Below, piece by piece: positions 6,708 through 24,381 of a stretch of 24,381 bases of DNA. A model generated the notes under the pieces. It was given only the letters and a program-made list of their open reading frames with translations, ran no database searches and was not told where the DNA came from. The translations under genes were made by a program, and so were the position numbers. Origin of the DNA: a virus. Taxonomy: Duplodnaviria > Heunggongvirae > Uroviricota > Caudoviricetes. The stretch's first letter is position 1. Every line of letters begins with the position of its first letter. Location: IMG/VR virus record IMGVR_UViG_2531839666_000027. One strand, given 5' to 3'.

Positions 6708-9021
<2,314 letters not shown>

Positions 9022-10543: not shown

Positions 10544-10755
10544 CAGAACCTCGCCAGCCGGTACCCGGGATGCCCCCGTCGTCGTGTAATCAGAGCCGCA
10601 AGGCGGCGCTCCCACTCCTGCCGTCCCTGCCGGATCTCAGATAAGTTTTCCATGGTCATCTGCTGACCATTAAAGGTGACGGATTTTCCGTCCAGCACCG
10701 CCATTTCAGCTTCCGTATAACGCTGAATCATGGCTTCGATATCATTCTGGTTCAT
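10543..10755 (-). CDS. head-tail joining / head completion protein (lambda gpW-like)
   Basis: About 70-aa ORF between terminase and portal; C-terminus ...RRRGHPGYRLARF resembles lambda W; ATG 10755 is preceded by GGAGG and overlaps the terminase stop. Confidence 0.7.
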   Translation of the reverse strand: MNQNDIEAMIQRYTEAEMAVLDGKSVTFNGQQMTMENLSEIRQGRQEWERRLAALITRRRGHPGYRLARF

Positions 10756-12725
10756 AACCATCCTCCGGAAGTCAGCCAGGGGTTAACATCGTCAGTTACT
10801 GTTTTCTTCCGTTTTTGTTTTTTAACAGGCGTGGATACCGGTTCCGGTGAGGATGACGGTTCGGTACTGTCCTGGACACACTCCAGCCAGGTCTCCCGGC
10901 TCGCCCACTCCGGTGCATCCGGCCAGCGGATCTTTTCGTATCCATGCAGAATGACCAGAGCCTCGGCATACACCATCAGGTCAAAAGCTTCGTTGGCACC
11001 GCGACCCGGCTTACTCCATTTCCCGTCACTGCTCCGCTCTTCATACGTCAGTTCGTCGTAAAACCAGCTCCCCAGCCAGTCAGGGAAATGCACATAGCCT
11101 GGACCTGGCGAGTCACGCCATAACGCGTTATTCACCCGGTCTTTCAGGGCATCCGTCTGAAGAAGCCAGAGCGGCACATCACCTGCGGCCTGCGCCCGGC
11201 GGCCCGTTCGTCCGGTGTTATCAGGGAATGTACGGCTGATCAGTTTTGCGCGCCGGATGCTGTCACCCTTAAACAGGTAAATACGTTTACCAAGGCCATC
11301 ACGACGGCAACGACGCCAGAATTTATAGGCATTATCAGTGACCCCGTCTTCACCGCCGGAGTCCACCGCCATTGCCATCAGTCGCATTTGTTGAGAAGGA
11401 TCGGAGGCCAGCGGCCAGCTTTTATGAAAAACATCCGTCAGCAGGACATCCCAGTCTTCCGGATAGCTGGCCGGATCAATTCGCTGGCTCTCCCCGTCGC
11501 AGTCACTGCGCAATGACTGCGTGATGTTGTAACGATCAATAATCCAGCGTTCGCCACGACTGCCATAGCCCGTTACCTGAACCACAAAACGGCGATGACG
11601 TCCCGCCTGCACATCCACTGTCGCCACAAGGAAATTAACGCCATCCGGCACACTGCGGGAAGGAACTGGCTCTGCCCGCTGCTCAAGCAGTTCACTTTTT
11701 CGTTGCTCCATGCTGGCACGAGGAAGATAAGGCAATCCCCAGTCGGTGTTGATAACCGCCCTGAGTGTTTCTTCGCTTCCTGTCGCTTCATACTCCTGTT
11801 CTGCAGTCAGTAATTTGTAAACCAGTTGCGCCCAGGTCTGATACGCAGCAGCTGGCCCTTCCATCCAGAAACTGGCGATACGGGAGCGGCGCGGTTCACC
11901 GGAAACGTTGCCGTTACGATCAATGACCTGACCTTCACGCAACCAGACTCCTGCACTATTGAGCTCACGCTTTTTCTCCGCAGTGATAATGCCGCTGCAG
12001 TGCGGGCAAAGTAGATACGCCGCCTCACTGGCTTTAAAGGGATCCGGTTCATTACGGTAGCCGGTCATGGCATCCATGGCTGGCTGAAAATATTCACCGC
12101 AGTGCGGACATGACCAGTACCAGCGGCGGCGGTCACCACGATTGTAAAGGGAAAGAATACCAGTCGTCGGTGGCGCTTCATGAGGCGACTTACGTCGCCA
12201 TTTGCTGTCGCAGATGTCACGTCCCGGCGAGCTCTCCACCAGAGTCATCCCGGCGGACATAAATGTGGTGGTACGTTTTGAGGCCAGGGAGAAACCATCA
12301 CCCTCGCTGTCGATATTCTCCGGAAAACGGTCGTAATCGGTTAAGGCGACAAACCGGTAATCCGACGACGACATAATGTTGACCGAGGGCCAACCAATTT
12401 TAAGGAACGAGCCATCCCTGAACGTCTTATCATGGACATTATTGTCGTTACGACGTGGACTCATTCTTTTCTTTACCGCCGCACTGCTTCTGAACGTTCT
12501 GTCGAGGCGCTTTTTAGAATGCTCGCGGGCCTTATCTTCGGTCATCTGCACAACGAGCATGTCCGAAGGATCGCAAACGATGGTATAGACAATCCATCCA
12601 TCGATCAGACCAATGGTCTTCCCTGTTCGCGCAGGACCAACAAAAATCACCGCATCGTATTCACGCGATGCCAGGCAGTTCATGGGCTCAATGATGTAGG
12701 GTGTCAGTTCAGGATCCCATGGCAC
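10752..12725 (-). CDS. terminase large subunit (lambda gpA family); the intact frame starts at a GTG, while the probable true N-terminus (ATG 12850 with AGGAGG) is in another frame
   Basis: 657-aa ORF with ...WYWSCPHCGEYF... zinc-ribbon-like motif typical of gpA terminases. The upstream 49-codon frame MGFSSARNLGRDISAGFSPPRRMPISEAVKKF... starts at an RBS abutting the small-terminase stop and would join this frame if the A6 run at 12758-12763 were A7. Confidence 0.85.
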   Translation of the reverse strand: MPWDPELTPYIIEPMNCLASREYDAVIFVGPARTGKTIGLIDGWIVYTIVCDPSDMLVVQMTEDKAREHSKKRLDRTFRSSAAVKKRMSPRRNDNNVHDKTFRDGSFLKIGWPSVNIMSSSDYRFVALTDYDRFPENIDSEGDGFSLASKRTTTFMSAGMTLVESSPGRDICDSKWRRKSPHEAPPTTGILSLYNRGDRRRWYWSCPHCGEYFQPAMDAMTGYRNEPDPFKASEAAYLLCPHCSGIITAEKKRELNSAGVWLREGQVIDRNGNVSGEPRRSRIASFWMEGPAAAYQTWAQLVYKLLTAEQEYEATGSEETLRAVINTDWGLPYLPRASMEQRKSELLEQRAEPVPSRSVPDGVNFLVATVDVQAGRHRRFVVQVTGYGSRGERWIIDRYNITQSLRSDCDGESQRIDPASYPEDWDVLLTDVFHKSWPLASDPSQQMRLMAMAVDSGGEDGVTDNAYKFWRRCRRDGLGKRIYLFKGDSIRRAKLISRTFPDNTGRTGRRAQAAGDVPLWLLQTDALKDRVNNALWRDSPGPGYVHFPDWLGSWFYDELTYEERSSDGKWSKPGRGANEAFDLMVYAEALVILHGYEKIRWPDAPEWASRETWLECVQDSTEPSSSPEPVSTPVKKQKRKKTVTDDVNPWLTSGGWL

Positions 12726-12858
12726 CGAGTTACCAGCCCCTTGGGAACACGCATGAATTTTTTAACAGCCTCCGAAATCGGCATGCGACGTGGTGGGGAA
12801 AATCCTGCCGATATGTCCCTTCCCAAATTTCGGGCTGATGAAAAACCCATTATTCCTC

Positions 12859-15027: not shown

Positions 15028-15203
15028 TCAGATTAAATTAATCTTGACATCATAGCTTTCAAGACCCGTCATTTTTTCCCGTGCGGTAAACTGAATACTG
15101 GTAACTTCTTTCCCGGTCTTTTTCTTAAGTTCAATAATTTTTTTGTTATATATTCAGAAATATCTGCTTCTGCTTTTGTTTTTAAGTTTTCAATATTCAT
15201 CAT
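15028..15203 (-). pseudogene. gnsB: gnsB-like gene with a 1-nt deletion in a poly-A run
   Basis: Hand translation: frame A gives MMNIENLKTKAEADISEYITKK then goes out of frame; frame B continues KKIIELKKKTGKEVTSIQFTAREKMTGLESYDVKINLI*. The two join into a 58-aa Gns-like protein only if the run at 15138-15144 is A8 rather than A7. Confidence 0.6.
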
Positions 15204-15527: not shown

Positions 15528-15640
15528 GATGGTGTTAACTCCAGTCATCGCTGGCACTACCACTGCTGGTTCAGAGTTAAAAAAACTATGATTTTTTCAT
15601 GATGTTACCGTAGTATGTGAGTATCCATCGAATAGATACC

Positions 15641-19585: not shown

Positions 19586-19613
19586 ATCTTATCCATGTTT
19601 TTGAAAAATGCAA
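19586..19613 (-). promoter_or_regulatory. candidate Q-dependent late promoter (PR'-like): TTGCAT-16 nt-TAAGAT on the minus strand
   Basis: Hexamers read from the minus strand just downstream of Q and upstream of the terminator; placement follows lambdoid Q-PR'-qut-tR' architecture. Weak by sequence alone. Confidence 0.25.
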
Positions 19614-19644
19614 ACATCATGTCGCCATCTTCAGCAAAAATCAT

Positions 19645-20394
19645 TTATCTCGTCACCTTCCTCAATTGCGCTTCCGCGTATGCTTCTTCCTGCCAGCACT
19701 TTGTTACCAGTTTACCAATGACGTCCGCATACCCCTTATACCACTGATAATCGGTCAGGTCTGGTACCAGCTTCTGGACATGACGTCGTGCCAGCGTGGT
19801 CGGTAAACGACTAAACCGGTTTCCATTACAACGCCCACAAATCTTATATACCGGTACGCCATGAAACCGGTTCTTTTTCATCCAGAACAATCCCTTTACC
19901 CTTACACCCTCTGCACGCTGTGCTGACTTCGCCCTTACCATGGCAATGCTGACATAGTTCCTTCACCCATTCTTCCTTGATTACAGATTCCCCGCGTCTG
20001 TAGTGTTTCACCACTTCGCGCAATACATTATAAAATCCCGTACCTGAACAATGCTCACAGCGAGCCTTACTTGCCGCAGACCTGGAGTAATCAGCAAAGG
20101 CAAAATTCACGAGGTAAGGAATAATCTGTAACCGGATTTCTTCACTCAATTTGTTCAATGTCGGGTTATCCAGTGCCATCGCGTAATTTAGCAGGCCTTC
20201 AATCGCAAACTGAGCGTCCTGAACACCAACTTTTGCCAGAAATAAGGCCAACCCAAGTGGTGCTTTCGACTGCACCATCCCCTGCGCTGCCATTACATCC
20301 GTAATTGTTAAACAACCGGTGCCTGTCGCTGGAGCGTCATCGCTCAATTTTGGAGATTTTGGGGAGTAATATTTTGGTAAGGCTTCAAGGTTCA
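19645..20394 (-). pseudogene. quuQ: late antiterminator Q, split by a frameshift at an A5 run (19874-19878)
   Basis: Starts MNLEALPKYYSPKSPKL... at ATG 20394; frame 1 ends ...CRGCKGKGIVLDEKEPVSWRTGI*, frame 2 continues ...NRFHGVPVYKICGRCNGNRFSR...QLRKVTR*. An A4 run would give one continuous Q protein of about 250 aa with Cys-rich zinc-binding motifs. Confidence 0.65.
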
Positions 20395-20407
20395 TGCTCG
20401 TTCTCCA

Positions 20408-21495
20408 CTTACGCCAGTACGCCAATTGCCAGCGCGCGATCGATAAAACGAATATCAGCTCCAGTTGGGAGCCATACTTCTCTTCAAATGCCACTGTATC
20501 CGTATGCAGCTCGTTGTGATGCTTTCTGCACAAAGGCAACACAAAGAGATCATGTGCTTTTGTTCCCATTCCGCCCTGCCCGTGACCAATCAGATGATGC
20601 GGATCGTCGGCTGGCATACCGCAGCAAGCACACGGCTGTGTCTTAACCCAACGTGTGTATTTCTCCTTAACCCAGCGGCGACGTTTAGGCAGCTTCATGA
20701 AAGATTCCGGAGACTCTGGATCAACGGTGATGCTTACCACCGTCTTTTCCTGTGGTGTTTTTGTTGCTGGTGGGCGTAAGGCAACGGTGCAAGATTTTTT
20801 GTGCGTTGTTTCAATATGCTGGTGGCGGTCTGCTCTCCCGGTACGATGTCGCTTTCGCGGTACACCGAGCAGATTTTTTCCGCTGGTAATCCCAGCGAAC
20901 GACGCGATACAGCCTCAGGTAGTGCATCCACCACCTGATTGCAGACCGCCCACCAGGATAATTCAGCCAAAGATAATTCCCGCTCCTGCGTACCGCTTAT
21001 TGCGTGACGGATGACGTCAATCACCCATGCTGTCAGATTTTGTTGAGCAAGCAGCTCCAGTGATTCCGATGTCTGGTCACGCAGTTGGTTGTCGCAGTGC
21101 CAACACAACACCATTGCGCCGGTACCATAACGGTGAATGACTGTTTCAGAGTGATGGTAATCGCCATTAGGCCACTGGCAGGATGTAACATGACGTAATA
21201 GCCAGTCAGACAATGCGCCAACACCGCCAGCAGCACGAATCACCCGTTCGTTACTAAAAAACGGCAGCAATGTTTTGTCTTCCGCCAGCGACTGGCGAAC
21301 GGCAGGAACGACTCCGGATGGCAGATTACGCATGCTTTTTGGTTCCGGTTCCACCAGCACTCGAGGATTATGAAATATCTGTATGGATTCACGGCCCGGC
21401 TTAAGGACCACCAGCCCAAGCTCAGGCACCAGAACAGGTCTAAGTAATACCCGCACGTTACCTCCAGATCCGTTGCTGGAAAGTGCGGGACGCAC
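20408..21495 (-). pseudogene. ydfU: DUF968-family protein with C-terminal HNH-like motif (YdfU-like), carrying at least two frameshifts
   Basis: Three frames carry consecutive pieces: ...ILKQRTKNLAPLPY..., then ...TPQEKTVVSITVDPESPESF...CACCGMPADDPHHLIGHGQGG...CRKHHNELH...ELIF, then RFIDRALAIGVLA* (TAA 20410..20408). As sequenced, the reading frame runs straight into Q. Confidence 0.55.
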
Positions 21496-21736
21496 GTGGT
21501 GGGCGTTCGGAGTAAGGCAATCTGACTGAGATTATCCAGTGACGGTAGTCGAGGCTAAGGGCTTTCTTAACCTCGTATCCGCGCCTGCGGTAACACTGAA
21601 TTATCCATTCAGCCTGCTCTTCAGTGCATGGAGGGTGTTGGAACCATTCAGACTTGAATGCGTGAGAATACCGCTCGTGCGTGCAGACAAGAACGGGCGA
21701 ATTATCAGAATTGTAATATTTTACGTTGCGTGCCAT
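21458..21736 (-). CDS. hypothetical protein (92 aa); may be the true N-terminal portion of the ydfU-like gene
   Basis: ATG 21736 with GGAG 9 nt upstream; MARNVKYYNSDNSPVLVCTHERYSHAFKSEWF...; overlaps the next frame by 38 bp, and that frame lacks an ATG for its first 53 codons. Confidence 0.45.
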   Translation of the reverse strand: MARNVKYYNSDNSPVLVCTHERYSHAFKSEWFQHPPCTEEQAEWIIQCYRRRGYEVKKALSLDYRHWIISVRLPYSERPPRASRTFQQRIWR

Positions 21737-21802
21737 CGGTTTTCTCCGGTGGCACGGTGTTACTCAGCGGGAGTTCAGCCCCGCGCAAGATTGTAGATGA
21801 GT

Positions 21803-22054
21803 TTATTCTTCTGCAAAAGCTAAAAAGCCTGCTTTTATTCCGATCTCTTTCAGTGCCTGTAATGAAGTGACAAACTCACCTTCGCGCAAGATAAATCCGT
21901 CTGTCACTCGACCATCCACAAAATTAATTAACGCAGCCCCATTCTTTCGCAAACACATAATGCGGTAATGACTAACAAGATTTCCATTTTCAACGCACAC
22001 AGCATAGAGGCCATCTTCACAAAAAATTTTACGCAATTCTTCGATGTTCATCAT
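21803..22054 (-). CDS. rem: small prophage protein Rem-like (83 aa)
   Basis: 83-aa ORF MMNIEELRKIFCEDGLYAVCVENGNLV...; position between hokD and ydfU as in Qin. Confidence 0.7.
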   Translation of the reverse strand: MMNIEELRKIFCEDGLYAVCVENGNLVSHYRIMCLRKNGAALINFVDGRVTDGFILREGEFVTSLQALKEIGIKAGFLAFAEE

Positions 22055-23100: not shown

Positions 23101-24381
23101 ATGGACGATATTAATATCAGCCTCGACGAACTTAACACTATTGATTTATCCCCCTTAATCCAGAGTAAGCTGCCAGTTACCTGCTTTGATATCACAAAGT
23201 ATCTTTCTAGCCTAGGTGATGGAAGAGCGGAGATAAGACTGCTAACCCATATTTGCGGTTTTCACTTTCGTCCCGAAAATCCACAGGTACCATTTGGTCC
23301 GTGCTTTCAAAGCAGCCAAGGTAGATCTGCAATTCCGGATGACATTAACGGGTTGTCGCTGGAGGTACTTTCTCAATTTTGCCCGACGATAGAGCTACCC
23401 GAACTTCAAGCTCGTATTGCTGATACACTTTGGGTTCGTAAAATTGGTGGAATCCGTTTTCCTTTGCTGGCAGTCCGTGCTTATTATGCGTCCAGTATAG
23501 CTATTATGACATCGCAAGGGACGTGGGTTAGTGCTTTAGAACGCCTAGAGCGTGCGCTTAGGCTGTGTTGTTTTTTTCGAAAGCATACTGATTTCAGGGA
23601 TGAATTTGATCAGCTTTCGGCACATCTACTAGCAGAGTATGAACGTACCAGAGAACAAGGCGATTCACCTTATCCGCTGCGACTCCTGCAACTCGATATC
23701 GACTGTAAAGTGAGTGAGCCATCTTTTATTGCCCAGGAACTCCTGTTTCTGACAAAAAACTATCTGGCTCAAAAATTATTTTCATTTGCCGTCGATGCCT
23801 GTAAAACCGCAATCCCGATTGCGAATAGGTGCTGTGACAGAGATACACAGTTTGAATTCTGGCGGCTTCTTGCCGATACACATCTGGAAGAGTCAAAATT
23901 CCAAGATGGCGGTATGATTTCGGCAGCCTGCATGCAGAATGCTATTGAAGCACTGGCTAATATTCCAGGAACCCGAATAGAACGTCTTGCGCTGTATGAA
24001 GAAATGCGTGATTACCAAATCGAATCCCGTCACCAGATGTCTATCCTTCAGTCTCCCCCTCAAGATATTAGTGAGATTGTCCATCAAGCCAAGAGTCGGG
24101 TAGTCGGAAGAGATTTGTTTGATATGGTTTTCAGACTTGCGATGCTGGTCTGTCGGCCAACCAGCATTGAGAGACTTAAGGCTCAAGCAATAGAACAAAA
24201 GGCCAACAGCATAGCTTGGATGTTTGGATCAACACATATTGATCATGAGGGAATGACACTTGCTCGCATACCCGCAGGATTGGGGATTGATGATGCAAAT
24301 GGGGCAGTTATTTGGCCCATAATGATGACGAGAATGCGTATTGAACCGCCCCGGTTTTCCGGGAGAGTGTTTTATCTGTGA
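23101..24381 (+). CDS. hypothetical protein, 426 aa, function unknown; opposite strand to the prophage late genes
   Basis: Complete ORF ATG 23101 to TGA 24379-24381, preceded by an AT-rich promoter-like region; no Walker A, HNH, DDE or other motif recognised by eye. Confidence 0.7.
   Translation: MDDINISLDELNTIDLSPLIQSKLPVTCFDITKYLSSLGDGRAEIRLLTHICGFHFRPENPQVPFGPCFQSSQGRSAIPDDINGLSLEVLSQFCPTIELPELQARIADTLWVRKIGGIRFPLLAVRAYYASSIAIMTSQGTWVSALERLERALRLCCFFRKHTDFRDEFDQLSAHLLAEYERTREQGDSPYPLRLLQLDIDCKVSEPSFIAQELLFLTKNYLAQKLFSFAVDACKTAIPIANRCCDRDTQFEFWRLLADTHLEESKFQDGGMISAACMQNAIEALANIPGTRIERLALYEEMRDYQIESRHQMSILQSPPQDISEIVHQAKSRVVGRDLFDMVFRLAMLVCRPTSIERLKAQAIEQKANSIAWMFGSTHIDHEGMTLARIPAGLGIDDANGAVIWPIMMTRMRIEPPRFSGRVFYL

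Follow-up and report, generated by a model that had tools for sequence, protein, structure and literature searches.

Homopolymer miscalls as the probable origin of a split ydfU gene and a YdfU–Q chimera in a Qin-type prophage sequence

DUF968 proteins and the DUF1364 family (the latter represented by YbcO of prophage DLP12, PDB 3g27) make up group 7 of the His-Me finger superfamily, and their genes typically have RusA and Q as neighbours (PMC5714182). In the DUF968 proteins of Gram-positive phages, an Orf-like DNA-binding domain is joined to an HNH motif (PMC4118853). The closest described counterpart of the locus analysed here is YdfU of the Qin prophage (PF06147, WP_001385829.1, b1560 of Escherichia coli K-12), together with the adjacent antiterminator YdfT, also named QuuQ (WP_001047131.1; PF03589). 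In Qin, ydfU is found in the same place as the gene in our window (the whole stretch of DNA that was analysed, 24,381 nt in length), between rem plus a 92-amino-acid (aa) open reading frame (ORF) and Q. However, the Qin gene is written in one frame, whereas the window gene, with one A and one T missing, is spread over three frames.

Read on the minus strand, the region runs through hokD, rem, the 92-aa ORF and then three overlapping ORFs, with cspB, essD, ydfR and rrrQ downstream of Q. The ORFs as written, the segments of ydfU and Q to which they correspond and the sites at which the frame changes are as follows.

92-aa ORF, 21458-21736, minus strand: WP_023140913.1, phrog_1212.
253-aa ORF, 21495-20734, minus strand: DUF968 profile positions 1-61 (Pfam, 51.4 bits).
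298-aa chimeric ORF, 19844-20740, minus strand: DUF968 profile positions 66-161 (178.6 bits) and Antiterm in a single ORF (Pfam).
98-aa ORF, 19941-19645, minus strand: second Antiterm match (Pfam).
ydfU segment 1, 20763-21456, minus strand: codons 1-231, with a GTG start at 21456; the frame continues to a premature TAA at 20734-20736.
ydfU segment 2, 20453-20762, minus strand: codons 232-335, with the HNH/His-Me-finger block CACCGMPADDPHHLIGHGQGG...CRKHHNELH; the frame is that of Q.
ydfU segment 3, 20409-20452, minus strand: codons 336-349, the tail RFIDRALAIGVLA and the stop codon, in the third frame.
Frameshift site 1, 20758-20762, minus strand: A5 (T5 on the plus strand), A6 in intact genes; ydfU codon 232.
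Frameshift site 2, 20451-20452, minus strand: TT, TTT in intact genes, inside ...GATATTCGTTTTATCG... (GATATTTCG); ydfU codon 336.
Q (ydfT/quuQ), 19645-20395, minus strand, start at 20395: 250 aa if intact; two one-base deletions 8 nt apart.
Q deletion A, 19874-19878, minus strand: A5, A6 in relatives.
Q deletion B, 19869-19870, minus strand: CC, CCC in relatives.

The second segment of ydfU, in which the motif reads CACCG...DDPHH...LCRKHHNELH, shares its frame with Q and therefore reads beyond the ydfU stop into Q, giving the 298-aa chimera. In this product, YdfU residues ~240-335 are followed by 18 linker residues read out of frame, then by Q residues 1 to ~172 and finally by 9 more out-of-frame residues; Q as written breaks off after codon 172, with the N-terminal portion joined to the HNH frame of YdfU. 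An earlier, sequence-only reading had described a DUF968/HNH ydfU-like gene that is broken by frameshifts and runs into Q. Both parts of this description hold, as the ORFs, the Pfam matches and alignment to intact genes place the gene in three minus-strand frames, and DUF968 positions 66-161 and Antiterm fall in one 298-aa ORF. The junctions that had been expected near the A6/A5 runs at 20715-20765 and at about 20450 were found at the A5 run at 20758-20762 and at TT 20451-20452. Of the ‘three or four reading frames’ proposed, three were recovered; there is no fourth because a strand has just three. Two further one-base deletions in Q (19874-19878 and 19869-19870) had been overlooked.

When window positions 19600-21900 were compared by megablast with 5,426 complete E. 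coli genomes, coverage of at least 80% was obtained in 1,543 of them, and the best matches, with 99.8% identity, are annotated as rem, a hypothetical protein, ydfU (DUF968) and ydfT (antitermination protein). In E. coli strain 190, the 92-aa ORF, ydfU and Q are intact and separate, with lengths of 279, 1,050 and 753 nt, respectively. Base-by-base alignment of this genome with the 2,301-base region showed that the window differs by exactly 4 one-base deletions, all in homopolymers, and by no substitutions. Alignment to intact DUF968 proteins, which had been proposed as a means of placing the frameshifts, located two one-base homopolymer deletions in ydfU, and restoration of these two bases produces a 1,050-nt ORF with a product that is 100% identical to WP_001385829.1 (YdfU, 349 aa). 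With two bases restored, the product of Q is likewise 100% identical to WP_001047131.1 (YdfT/QuuQ, 250 aa). Residues 160-346 of the repaired or reference YdfU match positions 1-171 of the 171 positions of DUF968 (PF06147; 257.6 bits, Pfam cut-off of 27.8). As intact YdfU spans the whole profile, whereas the match in the window is broken into positions 1-61 and 66-161 in two ORFs, the split is no chance pattern. Residues 1-349 of intact YdfU also match phrog_96 (‘HNH endonuclease’) over positions 1-334 of 334 (E = 1.3e-171). Antiterm (PF03589) is matched in both Q fragments (E = 3e-24 and 7e-24), and intact Q matches phrog_127 from end to end. In the intact homologues, ydfU is written in one frame. 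Judged from these sequence comparisons, ydfU and Q are an ordinary adjacent gene pair of a Qin-type cryptic lambdoid E. coli prophage, situated after the 92-aa gene, and Q is identified as a standard lambdoid late-gene antiterminator.

The 92-aa ORF (21458-21736) had been put forward as the true N terminus of a longer YdfU, with a junction at 21461-21531. Its position gives this idea some appeal, as it is adjacent to ydfU on the same strand, its TAA stop is separated by one base from the GTG start of ydfU, and the ribosome-binding site of ydfU (GGAGG) lies within its last codons. However, positions 20763-21900 are free of lesions, and the window agrees base for base with intact-ydfU genomes across the junction between the two. 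The match of phrog_96 begins at the GTG and extends over the complete 349-aa YdfU, and the 92-aa ORF matches a small-protein family of its own, phrog_1212. RefSeq treats it as a separate protein, WP_023140913.1, to which the product in the window is identical; the public collection contains this exact protein in 6,249 blocks, and separate 92-aa, 349-aa and 250-aa genes are called in all 10 of the 10 genomic contexts listed. Between K-12 and the window, the ORF has accumulated 13 synonymous and 9 non-synonymous changes and no insertion or deletion (indel), such that its frame is preserved in K-12; within codons 53-75, in the C-terminal part, there are 10 synonymous changes versus 1 non-synonymous change. 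Given the identical junction, the end-to-end match of YdfU to phrog_96, the separate phrog_1212 family, the RefSeq record and the 10 of 10 contexts, we regard a longer YdfU that begins with this ORF as practically untenable, and we classify the ORF by homology as a separate conserved small gene that is not part of ydfU. In K-12 MG1655, the ORF is intact between rem and ydfU (807-1085 of the extracted locus, L004), yet is unannotated. Neither YdfU nor the 92-aa ORF is represented by a model in NCBIfam.

Deletions in homopolymers are found throughout the window. Compared with the nearest complete genome, CFIAFB20190167, 23 bases are missing from the window, none is inserted and there are ~5 substitutions. 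The missing bases correspond to ~17 events, comprising 15 single-base deletions and losses of 7 bp and 3 bp within an IS3-family element, and a second close reference genome gives the same list; 17 deletions against no insertions has a binomial probability of p = 1.5e-5. The single-base losses sit in homopolymers, and the runs that are shortened include 6 of 34 six-base, 1 of 7 seven-base and 1 of 3 eight-base runs, but under 1% of the runs of four bases or fewer. The genes that are struck include those for the IS3 transposase (three times) and terminase, ynfN (twice), rrrQ, Q (twice) and ydfU (twice). Pairwise comparisons within the prophage gave the following counts.

Strain 190 versus CFIAFB20190167: 7,746 bp, 1 mismatch, 0 gaps.
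K-12 versus CFIAFB20190167: 1,789 bp, 42 mismatches, 0 gaps.
KV7 versus CFIAFB20190167: 19.5 kb, 154 mismatches, 9 gap openings.
Window versus strain 190: 7,746 bp, 0 mismatches, 7 gaps.

The pattern in the window differs from natural variation in the prophage (Fisher test, p = 1e-8). Three pairs of deletions are no more than 30 nt apart (p about 0.002), and this clustering fits a local low-quality consensus better than independent mutations.

Outside ydfU and Q, a T8 run is shortened to T7 in gnsB (15137), ynfN shows both A8 to A7 and T7 to T6 at sites 13 nt apart (15578 and 15591), and CC is reduced to C in the rrrQ lysozyme gene (17443). The IS3-family element lies at ~6708-7874 inside a ClpP-protease/capsid fusion gene, and its transposase gene has lost 7 bp (CCCGGGG, 7036), 3 bp (GGG, 7065) and one A of the A6G slippery run at which programmed frameshifting takes place (7609). 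The IS3 losses are present in none of the 885 complete genomes that carry the element and in none of the contigs with the terminase frameshift.

That frameshift provides an internal control. In the gene for the terminase large subunit (~10752-12850, minus strand), C5 is reduced to C4 at 12736, giving a 657-aa product that occurs in 60 blocks of the public collection. The same 657-aa product is carried by independent assemblies (L008-L012), several of which have the same IS3-interrupted capsid gene. The C4 allele is also shared by the samples ERR11797859, SRR30293065, SRR35987001 and SRR7401639. Because it recurs in independent assemblies, we interpret the change at 12736 as a genuine mutation of the lineage. 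The deletions in the window at 7036, 7065, 7609, 15137 and 15591 are absent from the independent assemblies that share the terminase frameshift, wherever these overlap. At 15137, 15578, 15591 and 17443, the terminase-frameshift contigs have full-length runs, with the exception of L010 (assembled from run SRR063742), which has the deletion at 15578 in common with the window and shows no substitutions relative to it; over 8.2 kb, the two differ in two homopolymers alone. None of these contigs reaches ydfU or Q, so that the control is indirect for the four sites in these genes. The only complete genome with the terminase deletion, ET791 (L013, NZ_CP100906.1), was considered as a lineage mate and set aside, as its prophage structure differs. 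In the equivalent prophage of ET791, the RefSeq annotation marks terminase, DUF1441, rzoD, Q, DUF968 and rem as frameshifted, which suggests that similar consensus errors are present in a deposited complete genome.

We searched complete E. coli genomes for the shortened alleles using 71-75-nt queries centred on each site, with a match defined as at least 99% identity. The A5 allele at 20758-20762 occurred in 0 of the 1,867 genomes that carry the segment, the TT allele at 20451-20452 in 0 of 2,094 and the Q allele at 19869-19878 in 0 of 1,456. Exact look-up of the broken products (240, 253, 298, 284, 183 and 98 aa) returned no match in public collections, and a homology search that used the 298-aa chimera as query revealed no identical fusion. 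Among ~15 billion public proteins, no identical fragment or fusion was present except for the C-terminal 78-aa fragment of Q, the sole record of which is EII21684.1 from E. coli 9.0111; exact look-up found the 657-aa terminase fragment under the same strain name. The window thus very probably derives from the E. coli 9.0111 assembly. Two other sporadic YdfU–Q fusions (P0001 and P0026) are each known from one public metagenome contig. Their junction is unlike that in the window, with read-through just past ...GVLA, and a frameshift of the same type is their probable cause.

We propose that the strain itself would have both ydfU and Q intact and that the lengths of short homopolymer runs would have been under-called, as consensus errors of sequencing or assembly, leaving each gene short of two single bases. 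The four missing bases would be enough to distribute ydfU over three frames, to fuse its HNH frame to Q and to split Q. We assign a probability of roughly 0.8 to this reading, in which an ordinary ydfU–Q pair was damaged by homopolymer miscalls of technical origin, because the deletion-only homopolymer pattern is window-wide, unlike natural variation and private to the record. The deletions themselves are shown by the alignments; their technical origin is inferred from comparisons of assembled sequences. Weighing against an artefact are the deletion at 15578, which also occurs in the independent contig L010, and the real homopolymer frameshifts of a decaying prophage, exemplified by the C5 to C4 change in terminase and by cspF, which is frameshifted in reference genomes. 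The four deletions could instead be genuine, recent slippage events private to the strain, with ydfU and Q as pseudogenes in a defective prophage that is visibly decaying, given the IS3-family element in its capsid gene, the state of cspF in reference genomes and a terminase frameshift that is real and common to a lineage. Such lesions usually arise through slippage in homopolymers. If this were true, an HNH-type nuclease gene (ydfU) and the antiterminator Q would have been knocked out recently and independently by slippage, a snapshot of prophage domestication in which late (lysis) gene expression is disabled, and the deletions would represent the ordinary decay of a cryptic prophage. We consider this main rival reading unlikely, as the window shows 7 deletions and no substitutions relative to strain 190 over 7.7 kb, and ~17 deletions, 0 insertions and ~5 substitutions overall, whereas natural comparisons have 0-9 indels per 42-154 substitutions. 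In addition, the alleles occur in none of the complete genomes that carry the segments, the assemblies with the terminase frameshift are without the other private deletions of the window, and the deletions that occur in pairs (8-30 nt apart) do not compensate for each other.

A mismatch-repair-deficient (mutator) lineage that gathers homopolymer indels would account for losses that scale with homopolymer length. However, mutator spectra consist mostly of transitions and contain both +1 and -1 changes, whereas the window has no insertions and almost no substitutions; moreover, one frameshift per 1.4 kb genome-wide would be expected to break a large share of genes, and we judge a mutator origin to be very improbable. 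Even less credible is recoding, in which programmed ribosomal frameshifting or transcriptional slippage at the A and T runs would yield full-length YdfU or a YdfU–Q fusion. The breaks do fall at A5 and T2 runs, and fusions of the two proteins exist elsewhere in public data (P0001 and P0026), but those fusions have a different junction and come from single contigs, and Q would require two more events, 8 nt apart. When we examined the locus for programmed frameshifting, the two-frame layout was not conserved in homologues, and the shortened runs were in no complete genome carrying the segments. As the homologues hold ydfU in a single frame, with Q as a separate 250-aa gene, recoding is effectively refuted.

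If homopolymer miscalls are indeed the cause, the split ydfU and the YdfU–Q chimera are a matter of quality control, and do not represent a new gene architecture, recoding site or fusion protein; the same caution extends to the IS3 transposase, ynfN, rrrQ, gnsB and Q in the window. Real and technical frameshifts can be told apart here, in that the terminase frameshift recurs independently, whereas the deletions in ydfU and Q were found in no other genome or protein collection searched.

Qin-like prophages differ in what they carry in the slot upstream of hokD (loci L014-L023). In the window, a 595-aa DUF7380/EMARD_N protein is encoded there (23101-24381, plus strand, running off the window end), and K-12 has relBE at this position. 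Elsewhere, the same slot contains KwaA–KwaB, QueH, or a methyltransferase with a SMEK-domain protein, and appears to be a hot spot for defence-type genes.

YdfU resembles group 7 of the His-Me finger superfamily in its Cys/His-rich HNH-type motif, CxxC...DDPHH...CRKHHNELH, which is predicted to bind zinc, and in its nin-region neighbours next to Q (PMC5714182). Its Pfam match to HNHc_6 is weak (25.6-26.6 bits, with a cut-off of 26.6), as is a match to a RecA-dependent nuclease family. A phmmer search of YdfU against all PDB chains, 3g27 included, gave only a chance match to an unrelated protein (E = 0.38), and no Pfam family matched the N-terminal 160 residues. From family membership alone, YdfU is most likely a nin-region nuclease, predicted to act on DNA recombination or replication intermediates. 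Residues ~90-130 (window ~21190-21070, minus strand) contain another Cys/His pattern, CQWPNGDYHH...LCWHCDNQL. It can be placed in register with the C-terminal HNH motif, although this is not significant (E = 0.21), and may be a degenerate duplicated motif.

With regard to known sources of sequencing error, the 7-bp (CCCGGGG) and 3-bp (GGG) losses in the IS3-family element are larger than typical single-base miscalls. The lesions in the window otherwise resemble the homopolymer errors of flow-based (454 or Ion Torrent) or nanopore sequencing in that they are likewise deletion-only, dependent on run length, clustered and private, and the genes that are broken (IS3 transposase, ynfN, rrrQ, Q and ydfU) are intact in relatives.
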